This document shows positions 2,980-61,540 of a DNA stretch of 64,000 nucleotides, piece after piece. The DNA is from Escherichia phage DCP80. The stretch is from the sequence record PQ671644.1. The stretch is one strand, 5' to 3'. Both the position numbers and the translations under genes were made by a program. Under the pieces are notes generated by a model. The model searched no databases. It was given only the letters and a program-made list of their open reading frames with translations, and was not told the origin of the DNA. Position 1 is the first letter of the stretch. Every line of letters begins with the position of its first letter.

Positions 2980-3251
2980 AATATTATCCTCAAAAGAAAT
3001 AGTTAAAGTAAACACGTACATGGTCAATCATAAAAATAATTGGGAAAATGCTCAGGACAACAAACAATACAAACATGTTCCAAATGGCTTTAAGTAACTT
3101 TTTCATAATCATCTCCAGTAGTTGATAGGTTCATTATACTACAACCACCGGAGATGTACACTCTTTTATGCAAGTTTCATTAATAATAAACTAAAACAAA
3201 CGCAAATTACTGGAATACACAACATCCAGATAAGACACCAGGTTTTGCTGC

Positions 3252-8993: not shown

Positions 8994-9040
8994 NNNNNNN
9001 NNNNNNNNNNNNNNNNNNNNNNNNNNNNNNNNNNNNNNNN
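8994..9040. other. assembly gap (N-run); junction between inverted homologous blocks
   Basis: 47 Ns; flanking sequence truncates gene 39 and its downstream ORF. Confidence 0.95.
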
Positions 9041-17332: not shown

Positions 17333-17486
17333 TGAACCTATCAACTACTGGAGATGATTATGAAAAAGTTACTTAAAGCCATTTGGAACATGTTTATACT
17401 GTTTGTTGTCCTGAGCATTTTCCCAATTGTTTTTATGATTGACCATGTACGTGTTTACTTTAACTATTTCTTTTGAGGATAATACT

Positions 17487-17790: not shown

Positions 17791-17800
17791 NNNNNNNNNN
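17791..17800. other. assembly gap (N-run)
   Basis: 10 Ns; gene content changes abruptly across it. Confidence 0.95.
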
Positions 17801-20237: not shown

Positions 20238-21920
20238 ATGAAAACGTTTAAGCTAAAGAAAGTAACGTATAAAAATATTATGTCTGTAGGCCAGCAGCCT
20301 ATTACAATCCAACTTGATAAGGTCCAAAAGACCTTAGTCACTGGTAAAAATGGCGCTGGTAAATCGACATTCCTTGAAGCTGTTACTTTTGCTTTATTTG
20401 GTAAGCCTTTTCGTGATGTTAAGAAAGGGCAATTAATTAACTCAAGTAACAAGAAAGACCTTTTGGTCGAACTGTGGATGGAATATGATGGAAAAGAATA
20501 CTATATCAAGCGCGGGCAAAAACCCAACGTTTTTGAAATCTCTTGTGGCGGTGAACGTCTTGATGAATCTGCCAGCAGTAAAGACTTCCAAGCGGAATTT
20601 GAACAGCTCATCGGAATGTCCTATGCGAGCTTCAAACAGATTGTCGTACTCGGCACAGCTGGATATACCCCTTTTATGGGCCTATCCACTCCTGCAAGAA
20701 GAAAACTTGTCGAAGACCTTTTAGAGGTTTCTGTACTGGCCGATATGGATAAGCTGAACAAATCTCTTATCCGTGAAGTCAATAGTCAAATCCAGGTGAT
20801 GGATGTGCAGCATGACGGGATTGTTCAACAGATTAAAATCTATCAGGACAACGAAGACCGTCAAAGAAAATTATCAGGCGATAATCTGTTGCGACTGCAA
20901 ACGATGTATGATGAACTTGCCACAGAAGCACGTGGAATCAAGGCAACTATCGAAGAAGCAACGACAAGACTGACCGAGATAATCTTGGGAGAAGACCCTG
21001 AGCACGAACTCACAAAGTTAAAGCAGGAATCATTCCTGATTAAATCGAAGATTGACGATTATCGAAAGGTTGTTGGTCTGTACGAGAAAGGTGGTTGTTG
21101 TCAGACCTGTGCTAGTCAGTTGCATCCAGGAGACCCTATTGTCGCCAGGATTGAGTCAAAGATTGAAGAATGTAATGCATCGGCTGATAAGCATAAAGCT
21201 CGCCAGAATGCTGTTCAGGAGCAATTTGATGCGTATACCAAGGCAAGACAAAACCAGCGTACAATAGCTCAAGACATTCAAACCAAGAAACAAACCTTAG
21301 TCCAGACTGTCGAAAAAGCTAAAAAGGTTAAAGCATTAATCGAGCAAGCCAAGTCAGAATTCATCGACCATGCAGCAGACATTAAAATGCTTCAAGACCA
21401 GCTTGATAAAATAGTCAAACAGAAATCTGACCTTGTGATGGAAAAATATCAACGTGGCATCCTAACGGATATGTTGAAAGATTCCGGTATCAAAGGTGCG
21501 ATTATTAAGAAATATATTCCTATCTTTAATAAGCAGATAAACGCTTACCTTAAAGTTATGGAAGCTGATTATAGTTTTACGTTAGATGAAGAGTTCAACG
21601 AAACGATTAAATCTCGTGGACGTGAAGACTTCAGCTATGCATCATTTAGCCAGGGTGAAAAAGCTCGTATCGATATTGCATTGCTGTTTACATGGCGTGA
21701 TATTGCTGCGAAAGTATCTGGTGTTAATATTAACACCTTGATTCTGGATGAAGTTTTTGACTCGGCCACCGATGTAGAGGGTGTTAAAGCAATTGCTACC
21801 ATCCTGAACAAATTGGAAGACACCAACATCTTTATTATCAGTCACCGAGACCATGACCCGGAAGCATACGGGCAACATCTCCAGATGAAAAAAGTTGGTC
21901 GATTCACTGTTATGGAATAA
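20238..21920 (+). CDS. 46: recombination endonuclease subunit gp46 (Rad50/SbcC-like ATPase)
   Basis: 560 aa; Walker A GKNGAGKST, ...GKPFRDVKKGQLINSSNKK..., C-terminal FSQGEKARIDIALLFTWRDIA...LILDEVFD match recalled T4 gp46. Confidence 0.9.
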   Translation: MKTFKLKKVTYKNIMSVGQQPITIQLDKVQKTLVTGKNGAGKSTFLEAVTFALFGKPFRDVKKGQLINSSNKKDLLVELWMEYDGKEYYIKRGQKPNVFEISCGGERLDESASSKDFQAEFEQLIGMSYASFKQIVVLGTAGYTPFMGLSTPARRKLVEDLLEVSVLADMDKLNKSLIREVNSQIQVMDVQHDGIVQQIKIYQDNEDRQRKLSGDNLLRLQTMYDELATEARGIKATIEEATTRLTEIILGEDPEHELTKLKQESFLIKSKIDDYRKVVGLYEKGGCCQTCASQLHPGDPIVARIESKIEECNASADKHKARQNAVQEQFDAYTKARQNQRTIAQDIQTKKQTLVQTVEKAKKVKALIEQAKSEFIDHAADIKMLQDQLDKIVKQKSDLVMEKYQRGILTDMLKDSGIKGAIIKKYIPIFNKQINAYLKVMEADYSFTLDEEFNETIKSRGREDFSYASFSQGEKARIDIALLFTWRDIAAKVSGVNINTLILDEVFDSATDVEGVKAIATILNKLEDTNIFIISHRDHDPEAYGQHLQMKKVGRFTVME

Positions 21921-24742: not shown

Positions 24743-24760
24743 NNNNNNNNNNNNNNNNNN
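24743..24760. other. assembly gap (N-run)
   Basis: 18 Ns; strand and gene content switch across it. Confidence 0.95.
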
Positions 24761-24910
24761 ACGAATCTGACGTTTAGTCGGTCGCGCAACGTAAGCTTGT
24801 GTAGTTACTCGTCCAAAAACACCATACTTAGGCGAAGGAGTATCAATAAAGACTTCCCACTGGCAAGAGTAGCTATATATTGCTTTAGAGAATTGGGTCA
24901 AAACAAACAT
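24761..24910 (-). CDS. hypothetical protein, 3' end lost in gap
   Basis: MFVLTQFSKAIYSYS...; ATG embedded in TTAATATG junction with upstream gene. Confidence 0.4.
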
Positions 24911-24911
24911 A

Positions 24912-25271
24912 TTAACCTCGCTTCATGAAGGCATTAAAAATCTGGTCATCAATATCAGTAGGCGGTTCTTGAGCTTTGACCCAAGCCCCTTCCAGAATGT
25001 CATTCGCTTCAGTAGATAACATGACCCCAATTTCGGGGTTTCCCGTTATCCAGGCGGCGCAATCACGTACATTCTTTTTATCAAATGGATAGCCACGAGT
25101 ATCTTCATAAGGTCCATTCATTACCAGGAATGAGCGAGCCTTTATGATAATATCATCTTTAACGATAATATAACCAATCGCTTGATTAAACTGAGGGTCG
25201 CGGAATTCATAATGAGCATTACCATCATTATTGCTCGCCAGTTCAAAATTCAGAAAATTGTAATCATTCAT
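24912..25271 (-). CDS. hypothetical protein with shared C-terminal module DDQIFNAFMKR
   Basis: 119-aa ORF; last 13 codons plus stop/start junction are nucleotide-identical to the end of the upstream gene. Confidence 0.5.
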   Translation of the reverse strand: MNDYNFLNFELASNNDGNAHYEFRDPQFNQAIGYIIVKDDIIIKARSFLVMNGPYEDTRGYPFDKKNVRDCAAWITGNPEIGVMLSTEANDILEGAWVKAQEPPTDIDDQIFNAFMKRG

Positions 25272-25272
25272 A

Positions 25273-25707
25273 TTAATCTCGCTTCATGAAGGCATTAAAA
25301 ATCTGGTCGTCAACTGAATATACAGGGGTTTCCAGAAGTTTCAAAAGACTGTTTTTGATGTACTTACCCGGGATACCCTTAACAATACTGTCATTCAACT
25401 CATTATCAGGGTTGATGTCTTTAAATTCAAACCCGTCAAACTCAACCTTGTCAGGAATACCGTCAGCGAAAAAATAAACCAATTGGTGCATTGTATTGCG
25501 CGAAAATAATTTAGACTTGACCGCAATAAGTTCTTGCCAATGGTTTAATTCTTTGTTAAGAAGTTTATGAGCAAACGTAATTCTATTATCACTATCAACA
25601 AGAAAATAACCCAGGTATTGAATCTCGTCGCTCCAAAACACCCTGTATGCCTGCGCATTTGGATTTTTACAACGAAGTTTTTTGATAACCAAATTTCTGT
25701 TAATCAT
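25273..25707 (-). CDS. hypothetical protein with shared C-terminal module DDQIFNAFMKR
   Basis: Probable start MINRNLVIKK at 25707, 1 nt after sp stop, GGTGA RBS; track ORF extends into sp. Confidence 0.5.
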   Translation of the reverse strand: MINRNLVIKKLRCKNPNAQAYRVFWSDEIQYLGYFLVDSDNRITFAHKLLNKELNHWQELIAVKSKLFSRNTMHQLVYFFADGIPDKVEFDGFEFKDINPDNELNDSIVKGIPGKYIKNSLLKLLETPVYSVDDQIFNAFMKRD

Positions 25708-25708
25708 T

Positions 25709-26002
25709 TTATTCACCTGTAACCCATTGAACAATTTTGCTATTGTCAAATGAAGCATCGCAATACAGAATATAGTTATACTGCATAACGTCACCAGAAG
25801 ACAATTGGTCAGATACTTCTTTAACCATATCAGGGCGGTCACGTTTGGTTATGTTCATGATATCAGCACGAATCTGGGTTTCAACTTCAGATTGCTCTGC
25901 TGTCATAGACCATTCACAAAGGTTTTTATCAAGCCCAGCAGTAACTGGAGCTGTACCACATGATGCTACGGTAAGAATTGCTGCAATAATTAACTTTTTC
26001 AT
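25709..26002 (-). CDS. sp: Spackle-like periplasmic protein (lysozyme inhibitor / superinfection exclusion)
   Basis: 97 aa; signal peptide MKKLIIAAILTVASC, then ...DKNLCEWSMTAEQSEVETQIRADIMNI...GDVMQYNYILYCD resembles recalled T4 Sp; lies between 41 and 61. Confidence 0.6.
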   Translation of the reverse strand: MKKLIIAAILTVASCGTAPVTAGLDKNLCEWSMTAEQSEVETQIRADIMNITKRDRPDMVKEVSDQLSSGDVMQYNYILYCDASFDNSKIVQWVTGE

Positions 26003-26062
26003 AATGTTCTCCTCAGTAGTTGATATGGATAATATACTGCATTATCCCTTTGATGTAAACTG

Positions 26063-26266
26063 TTATTTTTCGTTAGAACGATAATCACATTCAAAAACTT
26101 TATTGCCATTAACAAAGGCTTTAACCAGCGCATTATTCACTTCTGCATACTGCACTGTAACCCATTCAATCATATTTTTGTCACTGACATCCAGGGCGGT
26201 TTCTTTGGTAAACATATTACCATTTTCAAACCAACCAATAAACACTACGTTCTCTAATTTATACAT
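26063..26266 (-). CDS. dmd: Dmd-like antitoxin (discriminator of mRNA degradation)
   Basis: 67 aa; VVFIGWFENGNMFTKE...QYAEVNNALVKAFV resembles recalled T4 Dmd; synteny near sp. Confidence 0.5.
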   Translation of the reverse strand: MYKLENVVFIGWFENGNMFTKETALDVSDKNMIEWVTVQYAEVNNALVKAFVNGNKVFECDYRSNEK

Positions 26267-26584
26267 TTAGATTTCCTCACAAAACGCCCAAGCGGCGTGA
26301 TAAACTGTTGCGCCTTTAGTATCATTTAAACAAACCACGTCAACAGGTGCAATCACACGATAAAGACGGGGTTCTCCTCCATATGAGCGAGCTGCTCTTC
26401 CTGCATAGATACGCGCCAAACCAATATCTTCAGTAAAAAACACACGCCCTAAATTTTTCTTACGTCCAACTTCTGACAGAACACCAGTTGCATCAGGAGG
26501 ACAAAGCATATTTTGGATTCCAGCATTAGAGCTTGACCCATGATAATAAACTTTGTATTCTGCCTTGCAATCAATGGTTTTCAT
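26267..26584 (-). CDS. small protein with PARP-like NAD-binding motifs (candidate minimal ADP-ribosyltransferase-fold protein)
   Basis: 105 aa; YYHGSSSNAGI (H-G-S), GRVFFTEDIGLARIYAG (aromatic-rich strand), GGEPRLYRV (candidate catalytic E); motif-level only. Confidence 0.35.
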   Translation of the reverse strand: MKTIDCKAEYKVYYHGSSSNAGIQNMLCPPDATGVLSEVGRKKNLGRVFFTEDIGLARIYAGRAARSYGGEPRLYRVIAPVDVVCLNDTKGATVYHAAWAFCEEI

Positions 26585-26620
26585 TTTATTCTCCAGTAGT
26601 TGATAGAGTCATTATAACAT

Positions 26621-26644
26621 AAGAAAAAGGGGCTGTAAGCCCCT
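26621..26644 (-). terminator. rho-independent terminator
   Basis: Minus strand AGGGGC-TTACA-GCCCCT followed by TTTTTCTT. Confidence 0.5.
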
Positions 26645-26652
26645 TTGTTCAC

Positions 26653-26955
26653 TTACGCCAACTCATAGTTGTGCATAGTCAGACAACGAATTTTCCCAGT
26701 AGTTGGGTGCATAACAGTCACACTAATTGTGTAATCATCACACACGTTAACAAAAGGTTCAGCGATAACATATACTGCCCCACCCGCCAACAGGTATTCA
26801 CGAAGAGAGCTGCGAACAGATGAAGGTTGAACATCGCTTTTGAGCTTTATTAATTTACCAGTTTGAATGCCTGATGCGATAAGAGCAGCACAGTTTTCAT
26901 CACGGCGAGCGAATTGTCCAAAATAGTAACGATTCATGTCGGTTTGATTAAACAT
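26653..26955 (-). CDS. hypothetical protein
   Basis: 100-aa ORF. Confidence 0.45.
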   Translation of the reverse strand: MFNQTDMNRYYFGQFARRDENCAALIASGIQTGKLIKLKSDVQPSSVRSSLREYLLAGGAVYVIAEPFVNVCDDYTISVTVMHPTTGKIRCLTMHNYELA

Positions 26956-27033
26956 ATGGTTTTCCTTTTAACAGTTGGTTTATTGTGTAACTCAGTATGA
27001 AATCATTATGTCCTAAGACAAGGGGCTTGTACA

Positions 27034-27282
27034 CTATTTTAATTCATTAATTAAATGAAAATCTTGTGCATTGAAAGTAATGAAAAAATAATCATTCCCT
27101 TCAACTGAAGCATGACAGGCAACACTACACCAGCGCCTTGCTCTGTTCAAGGAGCAATCCAAAATTTTAAAAGGCTTCAGACCAACAATGGCAGCTGTTC
27201 TTTTATTATGCTCACAAATATCAGCATACTTTTGGAGAGCTTCTTCAGATTTGAACTGGTAATGCACATTAACTAATAACAT
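27034..27282 (-). CDS. hypothetical protein
   Basis: 82-aa ORF, Cys-rich. Confidence 0.45.
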   Translation of the reverse strand: MLLVNVHYQFKSEEALQKYADICEHNKRTAAIVGLKPFKILDCSLNRARRWCSVACHASVEGNDYFFITFNAQDFHLINELK

Positions 27283-27347
27283 TTTATTATCCTCATCAGT
27301 AGTTGATGGGATAATAGTACACCCTTTTTATGGTGATGTAAACCTCT

Positions 27348-27376
27348 AAAATGAAAAAGACCCGAAGGGTCTTTAG
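27348..27376 (-). terminator. rho-independent terminator with UUCG tetraloop after gene 41
   Basis: Minus strand AAAGACCC-TTCG-GGTCTTT then TTCATTT; overlaps gp41 stop. Confidence 0.5.
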
Positions 27377-28812
27377 AATTTCATTTGAGCAGCAAGGTCG
27401 TCCAGGTCGCTCCTGTTGACCCTGGTTTGTCTATTCATTTCAGCCTGGCGATTCATCTCACCGGTGGCTTCTTTAACCGTAGGGCCTTGTTTAGGAGCTG
27501 AATCATCATCAACCTCGTACCAGCGCTGATTACCTTTCTTAACACCCATCTTGAATTTATTATAGTAGTTCTTATCGCCATAACGAGACTTAAGCTGTTT
27601 GATTAACTGCAGACCCATTTGAGCGAATTCTTCAGTCTCAACAACACCCAACATAAAGTCGGCCGTGTGAGCAATACCAAAGGATTCTGCGATGTCAGCC
27701 ATATCAATCTCAGCTGCAACGTTCGCGCCCCTGGTTGTCTGTGCTGCAGTCCACAGGACCACATTTTTCTCAACAGCCAGACCACGAAGTTCTTCTGCAA
27801 CCATCTTAATCAGGCCGTAACTGTTTTCGGTAAACGTTTTCAGTCTTGAGCTTGCACAGATTGCCAGGTAGTCAACAATAATCACATCCGGCACAAACCC
27901 TTGCTTCAGTTTGTATTCATTCAATAATGCACGGAAGGTATCTGCATGAGCACCGCCAGTTGGATATTGTTTTATCTTCAGAGTCCCAAGAGTCCCTGAT
28001 GCCCGCCATTTTTCCATCTTAGCTTTGTATTCTGCCCATGATATATGACCTTCATCAATATCATCCAGAGACACATCCAGCAAGTTGGCATCAATACGTT
28101 TGGCACATACTTCTTCAGCCATTTCCATGCTTATATAAAGCACGTTATGACCAGTCTGAAGATAGTCGGCCGCTAACGAACAAAGTCCCAGAGATTTCCC
28201 GACGTTTGTCCCGGCCAGTAAAACGTTCTCTGTGCCGTACTCAACTCCACCCTTCGTAATTTTATTCAGGATGTTAATACGGAACGGAACCTTCTTCGAT
28301 TTGTTCAGATAAGTCTGGAATCGAGCTTCGTAATCGTTTAACCAGTCATGGCCCAGTGCAGAGTCAAAACAGATAGACAATGCATCGCGCATGATATCAG
28401 GGATAGCACCAATATCTGGGATTCGTTTATCACGTTTATCTTTCGGAAGTTCGGCATTACTCTGGATTTCGATAATCCTGGATGTGGCATTGAACATCGC
28501 AGACTTCTGTACATACTTCTCGGTTTCTCTAACCAACCATTCCTGGTCTTCTGGAGTATCAGCCAGAACTCCTAAGAGTTTCTTTGTGCCTTCATATTCG
28601 ACTTCAGAAAGGTCAGAACTGTCAAGCGCAATATCAAGTGCAGTCTTAGTTGGTACCGCTTGATATTCTTTTACGTGTTCGTTAATCGTATTAAAAAGGG
28701 TCTTTGCAGGACCCTTTTCAAAATATGTGTTATTCAGATATGGCCAGACTTTAACAAAATATTCCTTGTTAAAGAGTAGCTGGGATAAAATAGTTTCTAC
28801 CACTTCCACCAC
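27373..28812 (-). CDS. 41: replicative DNA helicase gp41 (DnaB-like)
   Basis: 479 aa; Walker A GTNVGKS, Walker B IIVDYL, ...LGTLKIKQYPTGGA..., RecA-like C-terminal domain; matches recalled T4 gp41. Confidence 0.9.
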   Translation of the reverse strand: MVEVVETILSQLLFNKEYFVKVWPYLNNTYFEKGPAKTLFNTINEHVKEYQAVPTKTALDIALDSSDLSEVEYEGTKKLLGVLADTPEDQEWLVRETEKYVQKSAMFNATSRIIEIQSNAELPKDKRDKRIPDIGAIPDIMRDALSICFDSALGHDWLNDYEARFQTYLNKSKKVPFRINILNKITKGGVEYGTENVLLAGTNVGKSLGLCSLAADYLQTGHNVLYISMEMAEEVCAKRIDANLLDVSLDDIDEGHISWAEYKAKMEKWRASGTLGTLKIKQYPTGGAHADTFRALLNEYKLKQGFVPDVIIVDYLAICASSRLKTFTENSYGLIKMVAEELRGLAVEKNVVLWTAAQTTRGANVAAEIDMADIAESFGIAHTADFMLGVVETEEFAQMGLQLIKQLKSRYGDKNYYNKFKMGVKKGNQRWYEVDDDSAPKQGPTVKEATGEMNRQAEMNRQTRVNRSDLDDLAAQMKF

Positions 28813-29141
28813 CTCTTTTTCATTTTAATTTTATCAATTTCATCTTGTATTTGCATTGTAACACACTTTTCTACATGCACTGCAAGCTCCGCTTTGCGGT
28901 CTTCAGAAGGGGTGCCGAAATCAACTGAAACTTTTCCAGATGGTTCAATTTTAATTCCGGTTACGTACACAATGTGACTGGACCCATCAGGGAGTGATAA
29001 CAGAATTTCCTGCCGTACAGTTCCCATGGATTGCCGGATAATCTCCAAACTTTTTTCGTAGTAAGGTACAGAAGGAGCCTTAGCTCCCTCCGCATCTTTC
29101 TCGAAATTATCTAAATCAGATAAATCGATATCATTCATCAA
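28797..29141 (-). CDS. 40: gp40-like protein
   Basis: 114-aa ORF between uvsX and 41 with overlapping junctions; synteny-based. Confidence 0.55.
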   Translation of the reverse strand: MMNDIDLSDLDNFEKDAEGAKAPSVPYYEKSLEIIRQSMGTVRQEILLSLPDGSSHIVYVTGIKIEPSGKVSVDFGTPSEDRKAELAVHVEKCVTMQIQDEIDKIKMKKRWWKW

Positions 29142-30309
29142 GGTCTTCCATCATATCTAAATCGTTTTCGATATCTGCCGCAGACGGTTTTGTCTTACCT
29201 TCAGGAGCAGTGTATTTTTCAACCTTGGAGGCAATAAGCGCATCAACTTCGGCATCAACAACAGCATTGCTATCGATTGCACCCAGTTGGTAATGGCGTT
29301 TGATTGCATCACGGAAAGGTTCGTGCTTGAACAGCGGGCCCCAGAATTCGGTGCAGTTAGTATCTTTTGCGCGCCATGATTTTTCTTCGCGGACCATTTC
29401 ACCGGTCTCAACATCAAGATATTCACGGTTATACCAACCAACTTTTGGTTTCACCACAAATCCGATTTCCATTGCCATATCAAGCAGGCCAGAATACGGG
29501 TCAATCCCACCATCGAATTTTACATCAATGAAGAATTTACTTTTCTCTTTGACCATACGAGATTTTTCGGCGTTCAGAACAAATTGGAAGCCTTCAAGTT
29601 CTTTACCAGTTTCTTTAATCTGGCGTTTGCCGATAATGAATACGGTGTCCGCAGAATACATAACACCTGTACCGCCGGTCATAACGGTTTTACTGTACAT
29701 CTCAATCGTCTCGATTGTATGGTTAACCGCGACACAAGGAATATCCTTGATGCTAAAATACGGGGTAACAATACGGAACAGAGATTTCAGGGATTTGGCA
29801 CGAGTCATATCACCAACGACTTTTTCGTTCATCGCATCTTCTGTTTCTTTTTTCGACGCCATGTTACCGATTGAGTCAATAAAAATAATGACTTTTTCAC
29901 CACGCTCAATTGCTTCAAGCTGGTTAACCATATCAACTTTCAATTGTTCAACCGACTGGATTGGTGTATGGATAACACGTTCCGGGTCAACTTTCATTGC
30001 ACGAAGATATGCTTCTGTGATACCAAATTCTGAATCATAGAACAAACAGATTGCATCGGGGTATTTGTTCATATATGCAGAGACCATCGTTAAACCCATA
30101 TTGGATTTAAAGTGTTTTGACGGACCAGCAAAAATAGTCAAACCTGACTGCATACCACCATCTAGTGCACCGCTGATTGCAATGTTCAGCATCGGGATTT
30201 TTGTACGAACTACATCTTTACCATTAAAGAACTTGGACTTGGTAAGAGTCGCGGTCATTTTGGATGTAGAAGCTTTAATCAAACGGGATTTCAAATCTGC
30301 AATAGACAT
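29131..30309 (-). CDS. uvsX: recombinase UvsX (RecA-like)
   Basis: 392 aa; LKSRLIKASTSK...KIPMLNIAISGALDGGMQSGLTIFAGPSKHFKSN...LFYDSEFGIT...MVREEKSWRAKDTNCTEFWGPLFKHEPFRDAIKRHYQLG matches recalled T4 UvsX. Confidence 0.9.
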   Translation of the reverse strand: MSIADLKSRLIKASTSKMTATLTKSKFFNGKDVVRTKIPMLNIAISGALDGGMQSGLTIFAGPSKHFKSNMGLTMVSAYMNKYPDAICLFYDSEFGITEAYLRAMKVDPERVIHTPIQSVEQLKVDMVNQLEAIERGEKVIIFIDSIGNMASKKETEDAMNEKVVGDMTRAKSLKSLFRIVTPYFSIKDIPCVAVNHTIETIEMYSKTVMTGGTGVMYSADTVFIIGKRQIKETGKELEGFQFVLNAEKSRMVKEKSKFFIDVKFDGGIDPYSGLLDMAMEIGFVVKPKVGWYNREYLDVETGEMVREEKSWRAKDTNCTEFWGPLFKHEPFRDAIKRHYQLGAIDSNAVVDAEVDALIASKVEKYTAPEGKTKPSAADIENDLDMMEDLDE

Positions 30310-30362
30310 TCATTTTTTCCATAGGCACCATCATATTTTTCTCACAGGTTTAAGATAGGATA

Positions 30363-30389
30363 ATTATATCACTGTATTTTTAGAGCAAT
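30363..30389 (-). promoter_or_regulatory. possible middle promoter (MotA-box-like plus -10) upstream of uvsX
   Basis: Minus strand TTGCTCTA, 12 nt, TATAAT; one mismatch to the recalled MotA box consensus. Confidence 0.3.
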
Positions 30390-30651
30390 TAACGATTGAA
30401 TCCACGATTAATTGCACGTTCAACAATCTTCCGGGTCTGACGTTTGTCCCACCAGTACATAAACCCAATACCAAATGCAGACAACAGCCATAAGCTAATC
30501 AATAACATACCAATCATAATATTCTTCTCACAGTTCAGGGAAATTTAGTAAACGTTACCACGTTTCCAGTTTTCTTCAGCCAAATGCTTATTACGCTTTT
30601 CTAATAGCAACAAACCAATTACTGTTACAACAATCAGAAGTAATAATAACA

Positions 30652-30886
30652 TCAGTTAATACCTTGGCGTGCTTTCTCTTTAGCTACACATTTATTAATA
30701 TAGCTCAGACGGTTTTGAGCAGAACGCTGATACATATCACGATACTCATTAGCTTTTGGAGAACCCGTCTCCGCTGCCTGATAAGCTTCCGCGCGCATGA
30801 TGTTTATCTGCATATTGATGTATGACATGCAGACCTGCGAAATCTGGTTAACAGTATCCAGGTCATTTTGTCGCTTGGTTTCTGCT
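30652..30886 (-). CDS. 3' end of unidentified gene, 5' part lost in gap
   Basis: Open frame ending at stop 30652, running into N-run. Confidence 0.35.
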
Positions 30887-30940
30887 NNNNNNNNNNNNNN
30901 NNNNNNNNNNNNNNNNNNNNNNNNNNNNNNNNNNNNNNNN
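30887..30940. other. assembly gap (N-run)
   Basis: 54 Ns. Confidence 0.95.
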
Positions 30941-32173: not shown

Positions 32174-32250
32174 TTTTATTTCCTCAGTTGTTATCAGTAG
32201 TTGATGGAACCATTATGCCTTAGCTCAAGGGACTTGTACACTACTTTTTG

Positions 32251-36510: not shown

Positions 36511-36520
36511 NNNNNNNNNN
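36511..36520. other. assembly gap (N-run)
   Basis: 10 Ns; cuts gene 34. Confidence 0.95.
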
Positions 36521-37388: not shown

Positions 37389-37693
37389 TATGCAACCTTA
37401 TTGAACATCGCCAGTTGATTAGGTTGTACAACCATAATTTCACGACGACCTTTTGCGTTTGACACGTTTAGGTAGATGCCTTTGTTCATGTCTGTTTCTT
37501 TATCATATACCGCAATTTTATTGACAGTAAAGATTTTACCACGAATATTTGCAAATGCACATTCAAACGCTTTAGTCAGACCTGCTTCAGCAGCTTGAAG
37601 AGCAGACATTTCATATTGTTGGCCAATTTCAAAAGAAGTAATCATTTTGTTGTCCTCATCAGTAGTTGATGAGATGATTATGTCTCTTTCCAT
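37388..37693 (-). CDS. hypothetical protein
   Basis: 101-aa ORF downstream of dexA. Confidence 0.45.
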   Translation of the reverse strand: MERDIIISSTTDEDNKMITSFEIGQQYEMSALQAAEAGLTKAFECAFANIRGKIFTVNKIAVYDKETDMNKGIYLNVSNAKGRREIMVVQPNQLAMFNKVA

Positions 37694-41759: not shown

Positions 41760-41800
41760 NNNNNNNNNNNNNNNNNNNNNNNNNNNNNNNNNNNNNNNNN
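41760..41800. other. assembly gap (N-run)
   Basis: 41 Ns. Confidence 0.95.
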
Positions 41801-41818: not shown

Positions 41819-42178
41819 TTAACCTCGCTTCATGAAGGCATTAAAAATCTGGTCATCAATATCAGTAGGCGGTTCTTGAGCTTTGACCCAAGCCCCTTCC
41901 AGAATGTCATTTGCTTCAGTAGATATCATGACCCCAATTTCAGGGTTTCCGGTTATCCATACTGCACAATCGCGGACATTCTTTTTATCAAATGGATAAC
42001 CACGATTATCTTCACAAGGCCCATTCATTGTCATAAATGAACGAGCCTTTATGATAACATCATCTTTAACGATAATATAACCAATCGCCTGATTATAACG
42101 AGGCTCACGAAATTCATAGTGAGCATTACCATTATTATTGCTCACCAGTTCAAAATTCAGAAAATTATAATAACTCAT
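41819..42178 (-). CDS. hypothetical protein with shared C-terminal module (copy 2)
   Basis: 119 aa, homolog of 24912-25271. Confidence 0.5.
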   Translation of the reverse strand: MSYYNFLNFELVSNNNGNAHYEFREPRYNQAIGYIIVKDDVIIKARSFMTMNGPCEDNRGYPFDKKNVRDCAVWITGNPEIGVMISTEANDILEGAWVKAQEPPTDIDDQIFNAFMKRG

Positions 42179-42179
42179 A

Positions 42180-42620
42180 TTAATCTCGCTTCATGAAGGC
42201 ATTAAAAATTTGGTCGTCAACTGAATATACAGGGGTTTCCAGAAGTTTCAAAAGACTGTTTTTAATGTACTTACCCGGGATACCCATATTAACAATACTG
42301 TCATTCAATTCATTATCAGGGTTGATGTCTTTAAATTCAAACCCATCAAATTCAACCTTGTCAGGAATACCATCAGCGAAAAAATAAACCAATTGGTGCA
42401 TTGTATTGCGCGAAAATAATTTAGACTTGACCGCAATAAGTTCTTGCCAATGGTTTAATTCTTTGTTAAGAAGTTTATGAGCAAACGTAATTCTATTATC
42501 ACTATCAACAAGAAAATAACCCAGGTATTGAATGGGTTCGTCGCTCCAAAACATCCTGTATGCTTGTGCATTTTGATTTTTACAACGAAGTTTTTTGATA
42601 ACTAGAGTTCTGTTAATCAT
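42180..42620 (-). CDS. hypothetical protein with shared C-terminal module (copy 2)
   Basis: Homolog of 25273-25707 with two in-frame indels (DEPIQY vs DEIQY; VNMGIPG vs VKGIPG). Confidence 0.5.
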   Translation of the reverse strand: MINRTLVIKKLRCKNQNAQAYRMFWSDEPIQYLGYFLVDSDNRITFAHKLLNKELNHWQELIAVKSKLFSRNTMHQLVYFFADGIPDKVEFDGFEFKDINPDNELNDSIVNMGIPGKYIKNSLLKLLETPVYSVDDQIFNAFMKRD

Positions 42621-42621
42621 T

Positions 42622-42915
42622 TTATTCACCTGTAACCCATTGAACAATCTTGCTGTTGTCAAATGAAGCATCGCAATACAGAACATAGTTATACTGCATA
42701 ACATCACCAGAAGTCAATTGGTCAGATACTTCTTTAACCATATCAGGACGGTCACGTTTAGTAATATTCATGATGTCAGCATAAATCTGATGTTCAACAT
42801 CAGCCTGGTCAGCAGTCATGGACCACTCGCAAAGGTCTTTATCAAGTCCAGCAGTAACTGGAGCTGTGCCACATGATGCTACGGTAAGAATTGCTGCGAT
42901 TAATAACTTTTTCAT
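42622..42915 (-). CDS. sp: Spackle-like periplasmic protein (copy 2)
   Basis: 97 aa, homolog of 25709-26002. Confidence 0.6.
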   Translation of the reverse strand: MKKLLIAAILTVASCGTAPVTAGLDKDLCEWSMTADQADVEHQIYADIMNITKRDRPDMVKEVSDQLTSGDVMQYNYVLYCDASFDNSKIVQWVTGE

Positions 42916-42973
42916 TTCAATCTCCTCAGTAGTTGATAGGGATAATATACTGCATTATCCCTATGTTGTACAC

Positions 42974-43177
42974 TTATTTTTCGTTAGAACGATAATCATA
43001 TTCAAAAACTTTATTGTCATTAACAAAGGCTTTAACCAGTGCATTATTCACTTCTGCATACTGCACTGTAATCCATTCAATCATATTTTTGTCACTGACA
43101 TCTAGCGCGGTTTCTTTGGTAAACATATTACCATTTTCAAACCAACCAATAAACACTACGTTCTCTAATTTATACAT
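42974..43177 (-). CDS. dmd: Dmd-like antitoxin (copy 2)
   Basis: 67 aa, homolog of 26063-26266. Confidence 0.5.
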   Translation of the reverse strand: MYKLENVVFIGWFENGNMFTKETALDVSDKNMIEWITVQYAEVNNALVKAFVNDNKVFEYDYRSNEK

Positions 43178-43495
43178 TTAGATTTCCTCACAAAACGCCC
43201 AGGCGGCGTGATAAACTGTTGCACCTTTAGTGTCATTTAAACAAACCACGTCAACAGGTGCAATCACACGATAAAGACGGGGTTCTCCTCCATATGAGCG
43301 AGCTGCTCTTCCTGCATAGATACGCGCCAAACCAATATCTTCAGTAAAAAACACACGCCCTAAATTTTTCTTACGCCCAACTTCTGACAGAACACCAGTT
43401 GCATCAGGAGGACAAAGCATATTTTGGATTCCAGCATTAGAGCTTGAGCCATGATAATAAACTTTGTATTCTGCCTTGCAATCAATGGTTTTCAT
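43178..43495 (-). CDS. PARP-like-motif small protein (copy 2)
   Basis: 105 aa, identical in translation to 26267-26584. Confidence 0.35.
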   Translation of the reverse strand: MKTIDCKAEYKVYYHGSSSNAGIQNMLCPPDATGVLSEVGRKKNLGRVFFTEDIGLARIYAGRAARSYGGEPRLYRVIAPVDVVCLNDTKGATVYHAAWAFCEEI

Positions 43496-43563
43496 TTTAT
43501 TCTCCAGTAGTTGATAGGGTCATTATAACATAAGAAAAAGGGGCTTACAGCCCCTTTGTTCAC

Positions 43564-43866
43564 TTACGCCAACTCATAGTTGTGCATAGTCAGACAACGA
43601 ATTTTCCCAGTAGTTGGGTGCATAACAGTCACACTAATTGTGTAATCATCACACACGTTAACAAAAGGTTCGGCGATAACATATACTGCCCCACCTGCCA
43701 ACAGGTACTCACGAAGAGAGCTGCGAACAGATGAAGGTTGAACATCGCTTTTGAGCTTTATTAATTTACCAGTTTGAATGCCTGATGCGATAAGAGCAGC
43801 ACAGTTTTCATCACGGCGAGCGAACTGACCAAAATAGTAACGGTTCATATCGGTTTGATTAAACAT
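43564..43866 (-). CDS. hypothetical protein (copy 2)
   Basis: 100 aa, homolog of 26653-26955. Confidence 0.45.
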   Translation of the reverse strand: MFNQTDMNRYYFGQFARRDENCAALIASGIQTGKLIKLKSDVQPSSVRSSLREYLLAGGAVYVIAEPFVNVCDDYTISVTVMHPTTGKIRCLTMHNYELA

Positions 43867-43944
43867 ATGGTTTTCCTTTTAACAGTTGGTTTATTGTGTA
43901 ACTCAGTATGGAATCATTATGTCCTAAGACAAGGGGCTTGTACA

Positions 43945-44193
43945 CTATTTTAATTCATTAATTAAATGAAAATCTTGTGCATTGAAAGTAATGAAAAAAT
44001 AATCATTCCCTTCAACTGAAGCATGACAGGCAACACTACACCAGCGCCTTGCTCTGTTCAAGGAGCAATCCAAAATTTTAAAAGGCTTCAGACCAACAAT
44101 GGCAGCTGTTCTTTTATTATGCTCACAAATATCAGCATACTTTTGGAGAGCTTCTTCAGATTTGAACTGGTAATGCACATTAACTAATAACAT
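43945..44193 (-). CDS. hypothetical protein (copy 2)
   Basis: 82 aa, homolog of 27034-27282. Confidence 0.45.
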   Translation of the reverse strand: MLLVNVHYQFKSEEALQKYADICEHNKRTAAIVGLKPFKILDCSLNRARRWCSVACHASVEGNDYFFITFNAQDFHLINELK

Positions 44194-44281
44194 TTTATTA
44201 TCCTCATCAGTAGTTGATGGGATAATAGTACACCCTTTTTATGGTGATGTAAACCTCTAAATGAAAAAGACCCGAAGGTCT

Positions 44282-47030: not shown

Positions 47031-47080
47031 NNNNNNNNNNNNNNNNNNNNNNNNNNNNNNNNNNNNNNNNNNNNNNNNNN
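47031..47080. other. assembly gap (N-run)
   Basis: 50 Ns. Confidence 0.95.
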
Positions 47081-52285: not shown

Positions 52286-52300
52286 NNNNNNNNNNNNNNN
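52286..52300. other. assembly gap (N-run)
   Basis: 15 Ns; joins gene 47 to an unrelated late-gene block. Confidence 0.95.
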
Positions 52301-57004: not shown

Positions 57005-57040
57005 NNNNNNNNNNNNNNNNNNNNNNNNNNNNNNNNNNNN
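57005..57040. other. assembly gap (N-run)
   Basis: 36 Ns. Confidence 0.95.
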
Positions 57041-61504: not shown

Positions 61505-61540
61505 ANNNNNNNNNNNNNNNNNNNNNNNNNNNNNNNNNNN
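61505..61540. other. assembly gap (N-run)
   Basis: 36 Ns. Confidence 0.95.

Follow-up and report, generated by a model that had tools for sequence, protein, structure and literature searches.

Three early-gene cassettes between gene 41 and dmd in Escherichia phage DCP80, one of them encoding a small protein with a predicted ADP-ribosyltransferase fold

What are the three small open reading frames (ORFs) that separate the replicative helicase gene 41 from dmd in Escherichia phage DCP80, and what might they contribute to infection? The window analysed here is a 64 kb stretch of this phage (PQ671644.1), a scaffold of 11 pieces split by N runs rather than one continuous genome stretch. An earlier note on this DNA had described a variable anti-defence island in which ORFs of 82, 100 and 105 amino acids (aa) precede dmd and sp, and the coordinates together with Pfam Dmd and Pfam T4_Spackle matches agree with that order. 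The interval given for it (26063-27282) is real, although its start takes in dmd; the three ORFs themselves occupy 26267-27282. The 41-dmd interval is a stack of three early-gene cassettes, each with its own promoter, in the known hyperplastic 41-61 region. The best explanation as a whole, to which I assign a probability of about one half, is that this stack includes a putative NAD+-dependent modifier, ORF105, placed beside RNA-protective factors. The genes concerned are the following.

27373-28812, minus strand: gene 41, replicative helicase, which bounds the island upstream (479-aa ORF; RZ and VR7, both 97% identical, annotate it as a gp41/DnaB-like helicase)
27034-27282, minus strand: ORF82, a stand-alone GoF N-terminal-domain homologue
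26653-26955, minus strand: ORF100, a Gaprivervirus orphan
26267-26584, minus strand: ORF105, RB69ORF040c family, predicted ADP-ribosyltransferase (ART) fold
26063-26266, minus strand: dmd, 67 aa (Pfam Dmd, 1e-19; phrog_2102)

The three-ORF locus lies inside the piece 24761-30886, every gene of which is on the minus strand. This piece matches Escherichia phage 212 over its full length at 97.4% identity and vB_EcoM_RZ, TH44, CJ20 and Shigella phage SP18 at 96-97%; the close relatives are VR7/SP18-like T-even phages (Straboviridae, subfamily Tevenvirinae, genus Gaprivervirus). In the published genomes of phage 212, RZ and SP18 the three ORFs are 99-100% identical to those of the window and are labelled "hypothetical proteins", and the whole arrangement is already present in published Gaprivervirus genomes at 97% identity.

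Are the three ORFs genes at all? The window holds at least two haplotypes of one Gaprivervirus locus, and the second, in segment 41801-47030, is 96.6% identical to 24761-30886. As the earlier note had it, this haplotype keeps the same content at 43178-44193 with a few substitutions:

43945-44193, minus strand: second copy of ORF82
43564-43866, minus strand: second copy of ORF100
43178-43495, minus strand: second copy of ORF105
42974-43177, minus strand: second copy of dmd

The haplotypes differ at no nucleotides (nt) in ORF82, seven in ORF100 and five in ORF105; all 12 differences are synonymous and the three proteins are identical. Further afield, ORF100 shows nine synonymous and no non-synonymous codon changes against phage RZ and 15 and six against VR7, and ORF105 shows 38 and 16 against RB69; substitutions were synonymous-biased in every pairwise comparison made. 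A promoter of the sigma-70/T4-early type is found 25-60 nt upstream of ORF82, of ORF100 and of the ORF105-dmd pair, and each ORF has a ribosome-binding site (GAGGA/GGAG for ORF82 and ORF105, AAGGAAAA for ORF100). Because the substitution patterns, the promoters and the ribosome-binding sites all point the same way, the three ORFs are real, selected protein-coding genes and not chance ORFs.

How might such a stack have been assembled? T4-type phages carry mobile regulatory cassettes known as promoter-early stem-loop (PeSL) motifs (Arbiol et al. 2010, PMC2839356; Comeau et al. 2014, PMC4122927). These flank orphan genes in hyperplastic regions, and their promoter consensus in the T4 group is TTTACW-N17-TAYWAT (PMC4122927). 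The signals around the three ORFs are these.

27356-27374, minus strand: terminator-like stem-loop and T-run (AAAGACCCTTCGGGTCTTT plus TTCATTTT) directly after gene 41, the first half of a PeSL-like motif
27314-27342, minus strand: early-type promoter of the ORF82 cassette, TTTACA-17-TACTAT, which fits the PeSL consensus
27005-27033, minus strand: promoter-like site of the ORF100 cassette, TGTACA-17-CATAAT, kept in VR7, where it comes directly after the gene 41 terminator
26626-26646, minus strand: PeSL-like stem-loop and T-run (AAAGGGGCTTACAGCCCCTTT plus TTCTTATG) after ORF100, overlapping the next promoter
26611-26639, minus strand: early-type promoter of the ORF105-dmd bicistron, CTTACA-17-TATAAT with an upstream TG
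26031-26059, minus strand: early-type promoter of sp, TTTACA-17-TATATT

Promoter-like sites were observed 22 times against 8.4 ± 3.0 expected in shuffles, and terminator-like sites seven times against 2.1 ± 1.5. Both stem-loops are GC-rich, and a stem-loop is followed by a promoter at the 41/ORF82 (27374-27314) and ORF100/ORF105 (26646-26611) junctions. As in PeSL cassettes, the promoter that directly follows is of the TTTACW-N17-TAYWAT type and the neighbouring genes are orphans that differ among close relatives. VR7, which does not have the ORF82 unit, runs from the gene 41 terminator directly to the ORF100 promoter. This 288-bp difference is bounded in the window by GTGTAC at 27322-27317 and 27034-27029, and the repeats are suggestive, but only suggestive, of a trace of cassette exchange.

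A separate observation concerns the 11-mer ATCAACTACTG, of which the window holds 10 exact copies against 1.2 expected (none of 100 shuffles reaches 10). In the island every copy belongs to an early cassette (ORF82, ORF105 or sp), where it follows the promoter -10 box and precedes the ribosome-binding site. The 11-mer may be a conserved transcription-start/5'-untranslated-region (5'-UTR) element, or else a microhomology through which early cassettes recombine.

26014-26024, 26594-26604 and 27297-27307, minus strand: ATCAACTACTG in the island
42927-42937, 43505-43515 and 44208-44218, minus strand: ATCAACTACTG in the second copy of the island
3116-3126 (minus strand), 17340-17350 (plus strand), 32195-32205 (minus strand) and 37660-37670 (minus strand): ATCAACTACTG elsewhere

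What, then, does ORF105 encode? It belongs to a long-annotated family whose RB69 member, RB69ORF040c, is 85% identical to it. Homologues form 121 clusters with lengths of 80-139 aa, for the most part 96-112; T4-like phages are the source of essentially all of them, and tblastn finds the family in 609 phage records at 60-100% identity (Escherichia 215, Klebsiella 116, Acinetobacter 68, Aeromonas 62; further host genera are Enterobacter, Cronobacter, Vibrio, Proteus, Morganella and Erwinia). Identity stays at 60-73% among the phages that infect Escherichia, Klebsiella, Acinetobacter, Aeromonas and Vibrio, which favours a conserved target. Two GenBank records name homologues "ADP-ribosyl transferase". 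In an alignment of 44 diverse members, from phages of at least nine host genera, 17 residues are invariant (H15, G16, P30, R41, N44, L45, F49, T51, D53, L56, A57, Y60, A61, R63, G70, G91 and A92) and E103 is conserved in at least 90% of sequences.

The AF2 model of ORF105 is a single 105-aa domain (mean pLDDT 89.8, pTM 0.80). Foldseek places Arr first (probability 1.0, TM 0.57); the nearest structural neighbours are KptA/Tpt1, Arr and AcrIF11, and a BFVD match at 34% identity is a 94-aa phage protein annotated "Rifampin ADP-ribosyl transferase". Supporting this, hhalign pairs YHGS...RVFFT of ORF105 with YHGT...HIYFS of Arr-2, so that the invariant H15-G16 falls on the HG of Arr-2 (strand beta-1) and H15 corresponds to the catalytic His. 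The invariant Y60 stands 11 residues past F49, on the following helix, which is the same spacing as that of Y54 and Y65 in diphtheria toxin, and E103 lies on the last strand of the model (99-104). From the model and these alignments my prediction for ORF105, made with high confidence, is an ART fold with an H-[F]-Y-E-type signature; the proposed signature residues are H15, F49/Y60 and E103, and its activity and substrate are putative.

The known relatives of this fold differ from ORF105 in several ways. Arr (Arr-ms; PDB 2HW2, 9IAF, 9IBA) has 140-150 aa against 105 and carries C-terminal rifampin-binding helices that ORF105 lacks; furthermore, rifampin resistance would be of no use to the lytic phages in which ORF105 occurs. 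AcrIF11 (PDB 6KYF; PMC12421852) has no detectable sequence relationship to ORF105, and its target, Cas8f of type I-F CRISPR, is narrowly distributed, whereas ORF105 is kept in phages whose hosts differ widely. Pfam Arr-ms gives weak matches in four of the 44 family members (best E 0.084; 13 bits for a Vibrio phage member). The ARTs of T4 are Alt, ModA and ModB. ORF105 is distinct from all three and has so far been discussed only computationally. In the literature searched, "ORF040c" appeared only in the table entries Aeh1ORF040c and RB49ORF040c of a 2006 genome paper, same-numbered ORFs of other phages, with nothing on RB69ORF040c, and the HIDEN-SEQ study (bioRxiv 2025.11.20.689424) holds no data on the family.

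The VR7 orthologue, VR7ORF044c (L001 3488-3778), is shorter by nine N-terminal residues (96 aa, MKTFYHGS...), a later start that it shares with many homologues of 96-97 aa, and the first ~10 residues of ORF105 have the lowest confidence in the model (mean pLDDT 68 against 78-97 in later 10-residue blocks). The late start and the low confidence together suggest that the N-terminal extension is dispensable. Outside phages, two homologues from Patescibacteria (candidate phyla radiation, CPR) share 48-49% identity, have 143-148 aa with ~40 extra N-terminal and ~20 extra C-terminal residues, and are solitary genes, one of them beside an insertion-sequence (IS)-type integrase. Two other "bacterial" ART matches are on contigs of 167-178 kb, probably T4-like phage genomes binned with bacteria.

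L017 2902-3348: Patescibacteria homologue on a Candidatus Kaiserbacteria chromosome (OY969413.1)
L018 2923-3354: Patescibacteria homologue on JAGWJP010000001.1

Could ORF105 be an RNA 2'-phosphotransferase of the Tpt1/KptA type, which would serve RNA repair by removing the 2'-phosphates left after host nuclease cleavage and ligation? Its gene lies four genes upstream of the RNA ligase gene rnlB in Slopekvirus and Pseudotevenvirus, and the family has an invariant basic loop, G40-R41-K42-K43-N44-L45, both of which would suit such an enzyme. However, none of the 44 members matches Pfam PTS_2-RNA at E ≤10. The catalytic tetrad of Tpt1 is R-H-R-R, but members of this family have Tyr, Phe or Trp, not Arg, just ahead of the catalytic His. 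The single domain of the model has no RNA-binding N-terminal lobe, and Arr is the nearest family both by Foldseek and by sequence. I consider a Tpt1 identity very improbable, and set it aside on the missing PTS_2-RNA match, the missing Arg before the His and the one-lobed architecture.

The relationship between ORF105 and dmd raises a second question. ORF105 ends in ...GAGGAAATCTAA and the dmd ATG follows directly (junction ...GAGGAAATCTAAATG...), the dmd Shine-Dalgarno sequence GAGGAA lies inside the last codons of ORF105, and the two genes share one promoter. The contact of stop and start and the position of the Shine-Dalgarno sequence suggest that ORF105 and dmd form one early bicistron, in which ORF105 would be translationally coupled to dmd in a single predicted unit of transcription and translation. 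Dmd is an inhibitor of the RNase toxins RnlA and LsoA.

Is this pair a toxin-antitoxin (TA) module? Iyer, Burroughs, Anantharaman and Aravind (2022, PMC9503650) predicted a type II TA system, "p0068-family ART + Dmd", in phages of Escherichia, Shigella and Salmonella, and speculated that the Dmd-linked ART has an RNA substrate. The p0068 family is probably, judging by context, the ORF105/RB69ORF040c family, for here too an ART of the H-Y-[EDQ] type is found immediately upstream of dmd in enterobacterial T-even phages. Under that proposal ORF105 would be the toxin and Dmd the antitoxin, and the module might exclude competitors or stabilise the locus. Besides the published prediction, the tight coupling seen here is in its favour, as is the 4-nt overlap of the ART and dmd genes in RB69. 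Among the Tevenvirinae records sampled at 85-90% identity, roughly half have Dmd or an antitoxin annotated under or next to the ART match (several of the remaining records are unannotated or list hypothetical proteins only). Furthermore, antitoxin mimicry by Dmd is established, and TA systems often use toxins with an ART fold (DarT, ParT, RES).

A wider survey weakens that proposal. The ART occurs without a detectable Dmd in all eight sampled phages from outside the Tevenvirinae (Slopekvirus KP27, Pseudotevenvirus Lw1, Aeromonas phages 44RR2.8t and 65, Acinetobacter phage Bhz15, Proteus phage phiP4-3, Morganella phage MP1 and Vibrio phage henriette), where the downstream gene is not Dmd: it is a hydrophobic ORF of 55-58 aa in KP27 and Lw1, gp30.6 in 44RR2.8t, DUF5417 in MP1, and none in henriette. 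These absences are to be read in the light of two facts, that a 60-aa protein is hard to detect at a distance and that non-homologous antitoxins could replace Dmd. The host ranges also differ, in that the many Klebsiella, Acinetobacter and Aeromonas phage records with the ART have no match among the ten most frequent names listed for the 796 Dmd records (Escherichia 595, Shigella 82, others). Conversely, T4 and RB3 have dmd directly after gene 41 and no ART, and the Dmd of RB3, with no ART beside it, is 71% identical to that of the window, as against 64% for the Dmd of RB69, which has one. The Patescibacteria homologues, as noted above, stand alone. Because the ART occurs without Dmd, Dmd without the ART, and the hosts differ, the pairing appears to be a lineage-specific operon fusion rather than the obligate dependency that the p0068 + Dmd prediction implies, and I regard the TA explanation as unlikely.

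The hydrophobic ORFs of KP27 (L005 2815-2991) and Lw1 (L011 2315-2482) overlap the ART gene by 4 nt, are 75% identical to each other and probably encode a membrane protein; in Acinetobacter phage Bhz15 an overlapping 38-aa hydrophobic ORF (L007 2288-2404) follows the ART. These ORFs could be an alternative ART partner where Dmd is absent.

ORF82 brings a third kind of protein into the stack. It matches phrog_2980 ("goF mRNA metabolism modulator") at 3.6e-20, and by BLASTP it is 33% identical to T4 GoF (141 aa) over 63 aa (GoF residues 7-69, E 1e-7); among Pfam, NCBIfam and PADLOC families it has no match above threshold. A sub-threshold zf-CGNR match (18 bits) was discarded, the Cys residues not being conserved in RB3_036 or GoF. 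GoF residues 1-91 are predicted to form an LSm-like five-stranded barrel that is common to Frd.2 and MotB.1 (Kim et al. 2025, PMC12152347). Since the 82-aa ORF aligns inside this domain, ORF82 is a natural "N-terminal domain only" member of the GoF family, with its fold predicted from the literature, and a putative RNA-binding protein. It differs from T4 GoF in lacking the acidic C-terminal half and in its place in the 41-61 interval, whereas T4 GoF is next to gene 39. The mutant GoF(D25Y) stabilises mRNA with the gene 41 5'-UTR, and wild-type GoF is without known function (PMC12152347).

The distribution of ORF82 covers 83 phage records, 12 of them at ≥95% identity (Gaprivervirus) and 71 of the Tequatrovirus type (RB3, RB5, RB7, PP01 and others) at ~57%. 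RB3_036, 57% identical, is in the same 41-61 interval, between 61.4 (tifA) and sp. Absent from the VR7 interval and placed elsewhere within the same interval in RB3-type phages, ORF82 is apparently a mobile cassette.

ORF100 matches phrog_17014, annotated as of unknown function, and scans of Pfam, NCBIfam and PADLOC gave nothing above threshold. It forms a single cluster, its own, among 5.8 billion proteins, and the 21 phage records that carry it (94-100% identity) all belong to Gaprivervirus. An exhaustive phmmer search of 1.84 billion representatives returned two matches that were judged artefacts of scores summed over repeats, the first a 704-aa tandem-repeat protein that is likely a spurious translation of repetitive DNA and the second a 16-repeat Cna_B adhesin. 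The computed properties are those of a soluble protein of ~11 kDa with a near-neutral pI. ORF100 is thus, from its sequence relatives, a conserved protein-coding orphan restricted to Gaprivervirus; its position makes it, most likely, one more of the small early proteins of host takeover or counter-defence.

Such distributions invite the suspicion that the three ORFs are passengers without function, carried along by selfish promoter cassettes, or in the case of ORF105 an inactive ART relic, and are kept by linkage alone. ORF100 and ORF82 are indeed very narrow or patchy in occurrence, VR7 demonstrates that ORF82 is dispensable within the genus, and T4 goF and motB.1 knock-outs have no laboratory phenotype (PMC12152347). 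Mere passengers, however, would hardly explain the synonymous bias found in all the comparisons, an intact promoter kept at every unit, or the clear ribosome-binding sites of ORF82 and ORF105. Nor would a relic be expected to hold 17 residues invariant over 44 sequences from nine or more host genera, with homologues persisting in Patescibacteria as well. I therefore think it very unlikely that the ORFs are cargo.

I return to the preferred explanation, a cassette stack in which ORF105 is an NAD+-dependent modifier. All three proteins would be made in the first minutes of infection. ORF105 would bind NAD+, with F49 and Y60 sandwiching the nicotinamide in the manner of diphtheria toxin Y54 and Y65, and would mono-ADP-ribosylate a highly conserved target with H15 and E103 as catalytic residues; the most likely targets would be RNA ends or some conserved part of the host RNA/translation machinery. 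With Dmd, TifA and the GoF-like protein it may keep phage mRNA functional under abortive-infection toxins of the RNase type, and the cassettes themselves would be gained and lost by recombination at the promoter/stem-loop motifs. TifA is an RNA-binding inhibitor of the RNase ToxN (PMC10853763). Dmd acting against RnlA/LsoA, TifA against ToxN, the mRNA stability linked to the GoF family, an RNA-acting enzyme among the structural neighbours of the ART and the RNA substrate that Iyer et al. independently proposed are together what leads me to prefer RNA-protective or host-modifying co-expression as the mechanism, and an anti-defence role for the three ORFs is plausible from their position.

Several observations weigh against this explanation. 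The canonical beta-2 Tyr of the H-Y-[EDQ] clade, the catalytic Tyr of Arr, is an invariant Phe (F49) in ORF105, and the catalytic role proposed for E103 is drawn from conservation and strand position only, with a different C-terminal motif in the Patescibacteria homologues. ORF105 is below every Pfam, NCBIfam and PADLOC threshold: it has no match to Pfam Arr-ms (PF12120, gathering threshold 25 bits) at E ≤1, and its alignment profile finds nothing among PDB sequences at E ≤10. Outside the Tevenvirinae the ART is not beside dmd but in other variable regions (for example hoc-24, or upstream of srd-rnlB), and the link to RNA protection may be mere co-location in a hyperplastic region. The cassettes depart from the PeSL pattern in having a stem-loop at only two of three junctions, that between ORF82 and ORF100 being without one; recombination is read from one indel relative to VR7, and the 6-bp GTGTAC repeat could be chance. 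Finally, ORF100 yielded no informative relative in the searches run and no usable model (AF2 pLDDT 43.5).

A bolder form of the same idea is that ORF105 and its ~600 phage homologues are the smallest active ARTs known (96-105 aa), that they act on RNA, and that together with Dmd they shield mRNA from HEPN-type RNase toxins. They might do so by ADP-ribosylation or capping of RNA ends or by modifying a conserved RNA-handling factor, and in one variant Dmd would moonlight as the off-switch of ORF105. I judge this version to be doubtful, indeed decidedly unlikely as it stands; if true, such an RNA-acting ORF105-Dmd system would be a new enzymatic counter-defence mechanism.

How variable is the island as a whole? 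Srikant et al. (2022, PMC9391042) suggested that the region holding dmd, tifA and adfA may be an "anti-TA island". Comparison bears out its variability, in that gene content between 41 and 61 differs among the phages compared: dmd, tifA, sp and adfA in T4; dmd, tifA, a GoF-like gene and sp in RB3; ORF041c, the ART, dmd, tifA, imm.1, imm, sp, 61.2 and further genes in RB69; ORF100, the ART, dmd, two extra ORFs, sp and further genes in VR7; and the GoF-like ORF82, ORF100, the ART, dmd, sp and further genes in RZ and the window. The order in T4 is 41, dmd, 61.4, sp, 61.2, 61.1, 61, and a gap of 58 nt separates the end of gene 41 (20612) from dmd (20371-20553), so the earlier note was right that dmd and sp adjoin gene 41 more closely in T4. 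That it recognised none of the three ORFs as T4 genes is borne out in part: counterparts of ORF100 and ORF105 were not found in the T4 41-61 interval (T4 positions 4000-24500 read), but ORF82 belongs to the family of T4 GoF. As a set, the three are not T4 61.x genes of established function. AdfN/gp30.3 (PMC11257639) belongs to a different locus and is irrelevant to this interval.

The remaining genes of the piece, and the second copies of two of them, are as follows.

29131-30309, minus strand: uvsX
28797-29141, minus strand: gene 40 (Pfam Phage_head_chap)
25709-26002, minus strand: sp (spackle), 97 aa (Pfam T4_Spackle, 1.7e-42)
25273-25710, minus strand: first shared-tail gene, 145 aa, C-terminal region AdfA-like (VR7ORF039c also 145 aa; tblastn to T4 AdfA residues 146-207, E 0.002)
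24912-25271, minus strand: second shared-tail gene, 119 aa, gp61.2-like (annotated 61.2 in VR7; tblastn to T4 AdfA residues 168-208)
24761-24898, minus strand: tifA(61.4)-like fragment, cut by the N run 24743-24760 (tblastn to T4 TifA, 43% identity over 46 aa, E 4e-7)
41819-42178 and about 42180-42620, minus strand: second copies of the shared-tail genes

The island resembles that of the T-even phages T4, T2, T6 and RB69 in occupying the same slot between helicase 41 and primase 61, in its early promoters, and in having dmd, sp, a tifA-like fragment and two genes like the AdfA C-terminus. It differs in the three extra cassettes before dmd, in the position of tifA, and in the replacement of AdfA by two short paralogues that have only the C-terminal part in common. 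The tifA-like fragment, which corresponds to T4 TifA residues 17-59, follows the 61.2-like gene; tifA is thus not next to dmd here, as in VR7. The gap at 24743-24760 also breaks gp62, and gene 61 lies past it; in the 97%-identical RZ and VR7 gene 61 does follow.

The two shared-tail genes that the earlier note placed after sp are present, with the common C-terminal tail DDQIFNAFMKR[GD], and both match the C-terminal part of T4 AdfA/gp61.2. AdfA/gp61.2 is the anti-DarT factor of T4. Where T4 has one gene of 208 aa, this phage seems to have two AdfA paralogues, either truncated or diverged; Pfam AdfA covers only the last 14 residues of the 119-aa gene. A 189-aa GTG-started ORF for the first of them is probably too long, because the phrog_8539 match begins at residue 46 and VR7ORF039c has 145 aa. 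Between haplotypes, sp (25709-26002 against 42622-42915) has 30 nt and nine aa changes and the 61.2-like gene (24912-25271 against 41819-42178) 33 nt and 14 aa changes. This is ~10% divergence with many replacements, as against 0-2.3% and no replacements in ORF82, ORF100 and ORF105, a mosaic pattern of divergence, and the Spackle and AdfA-like genes may be under diversifying selection. The pieces of the scaffold are delimited by the following gaps.

8994-9040, 17791-17800, 24743-24760, 30887-30940 and 36511-36520: N runs
41760-41800, 47031-47080, 52286-52300, 57005-57040 and 61506-61540: N runs, continued

At this point the value of the locus, which is not new sequence, is in prioritising experiments. 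The 41-61 interval has already given three experimentally proven inhibitors of TA defence, namely Dmd, TifA and AdfA, and this makes uncharacterised genes that share its early promoters rational candidates for counter-defence. ORF82 would give the GoF LSm-like family a natural member consisting of the N-terminal domain only, and the lineage-specific pairing of ART and dmd is a new, testable argument against the published TA prediction. The most useful lead is ORF105, a very small and highly conserved protein with a predicted ART fold in hundreds of Straboviridae, whose target could reveal a new phage use of NAD+ chemistry early in infection.

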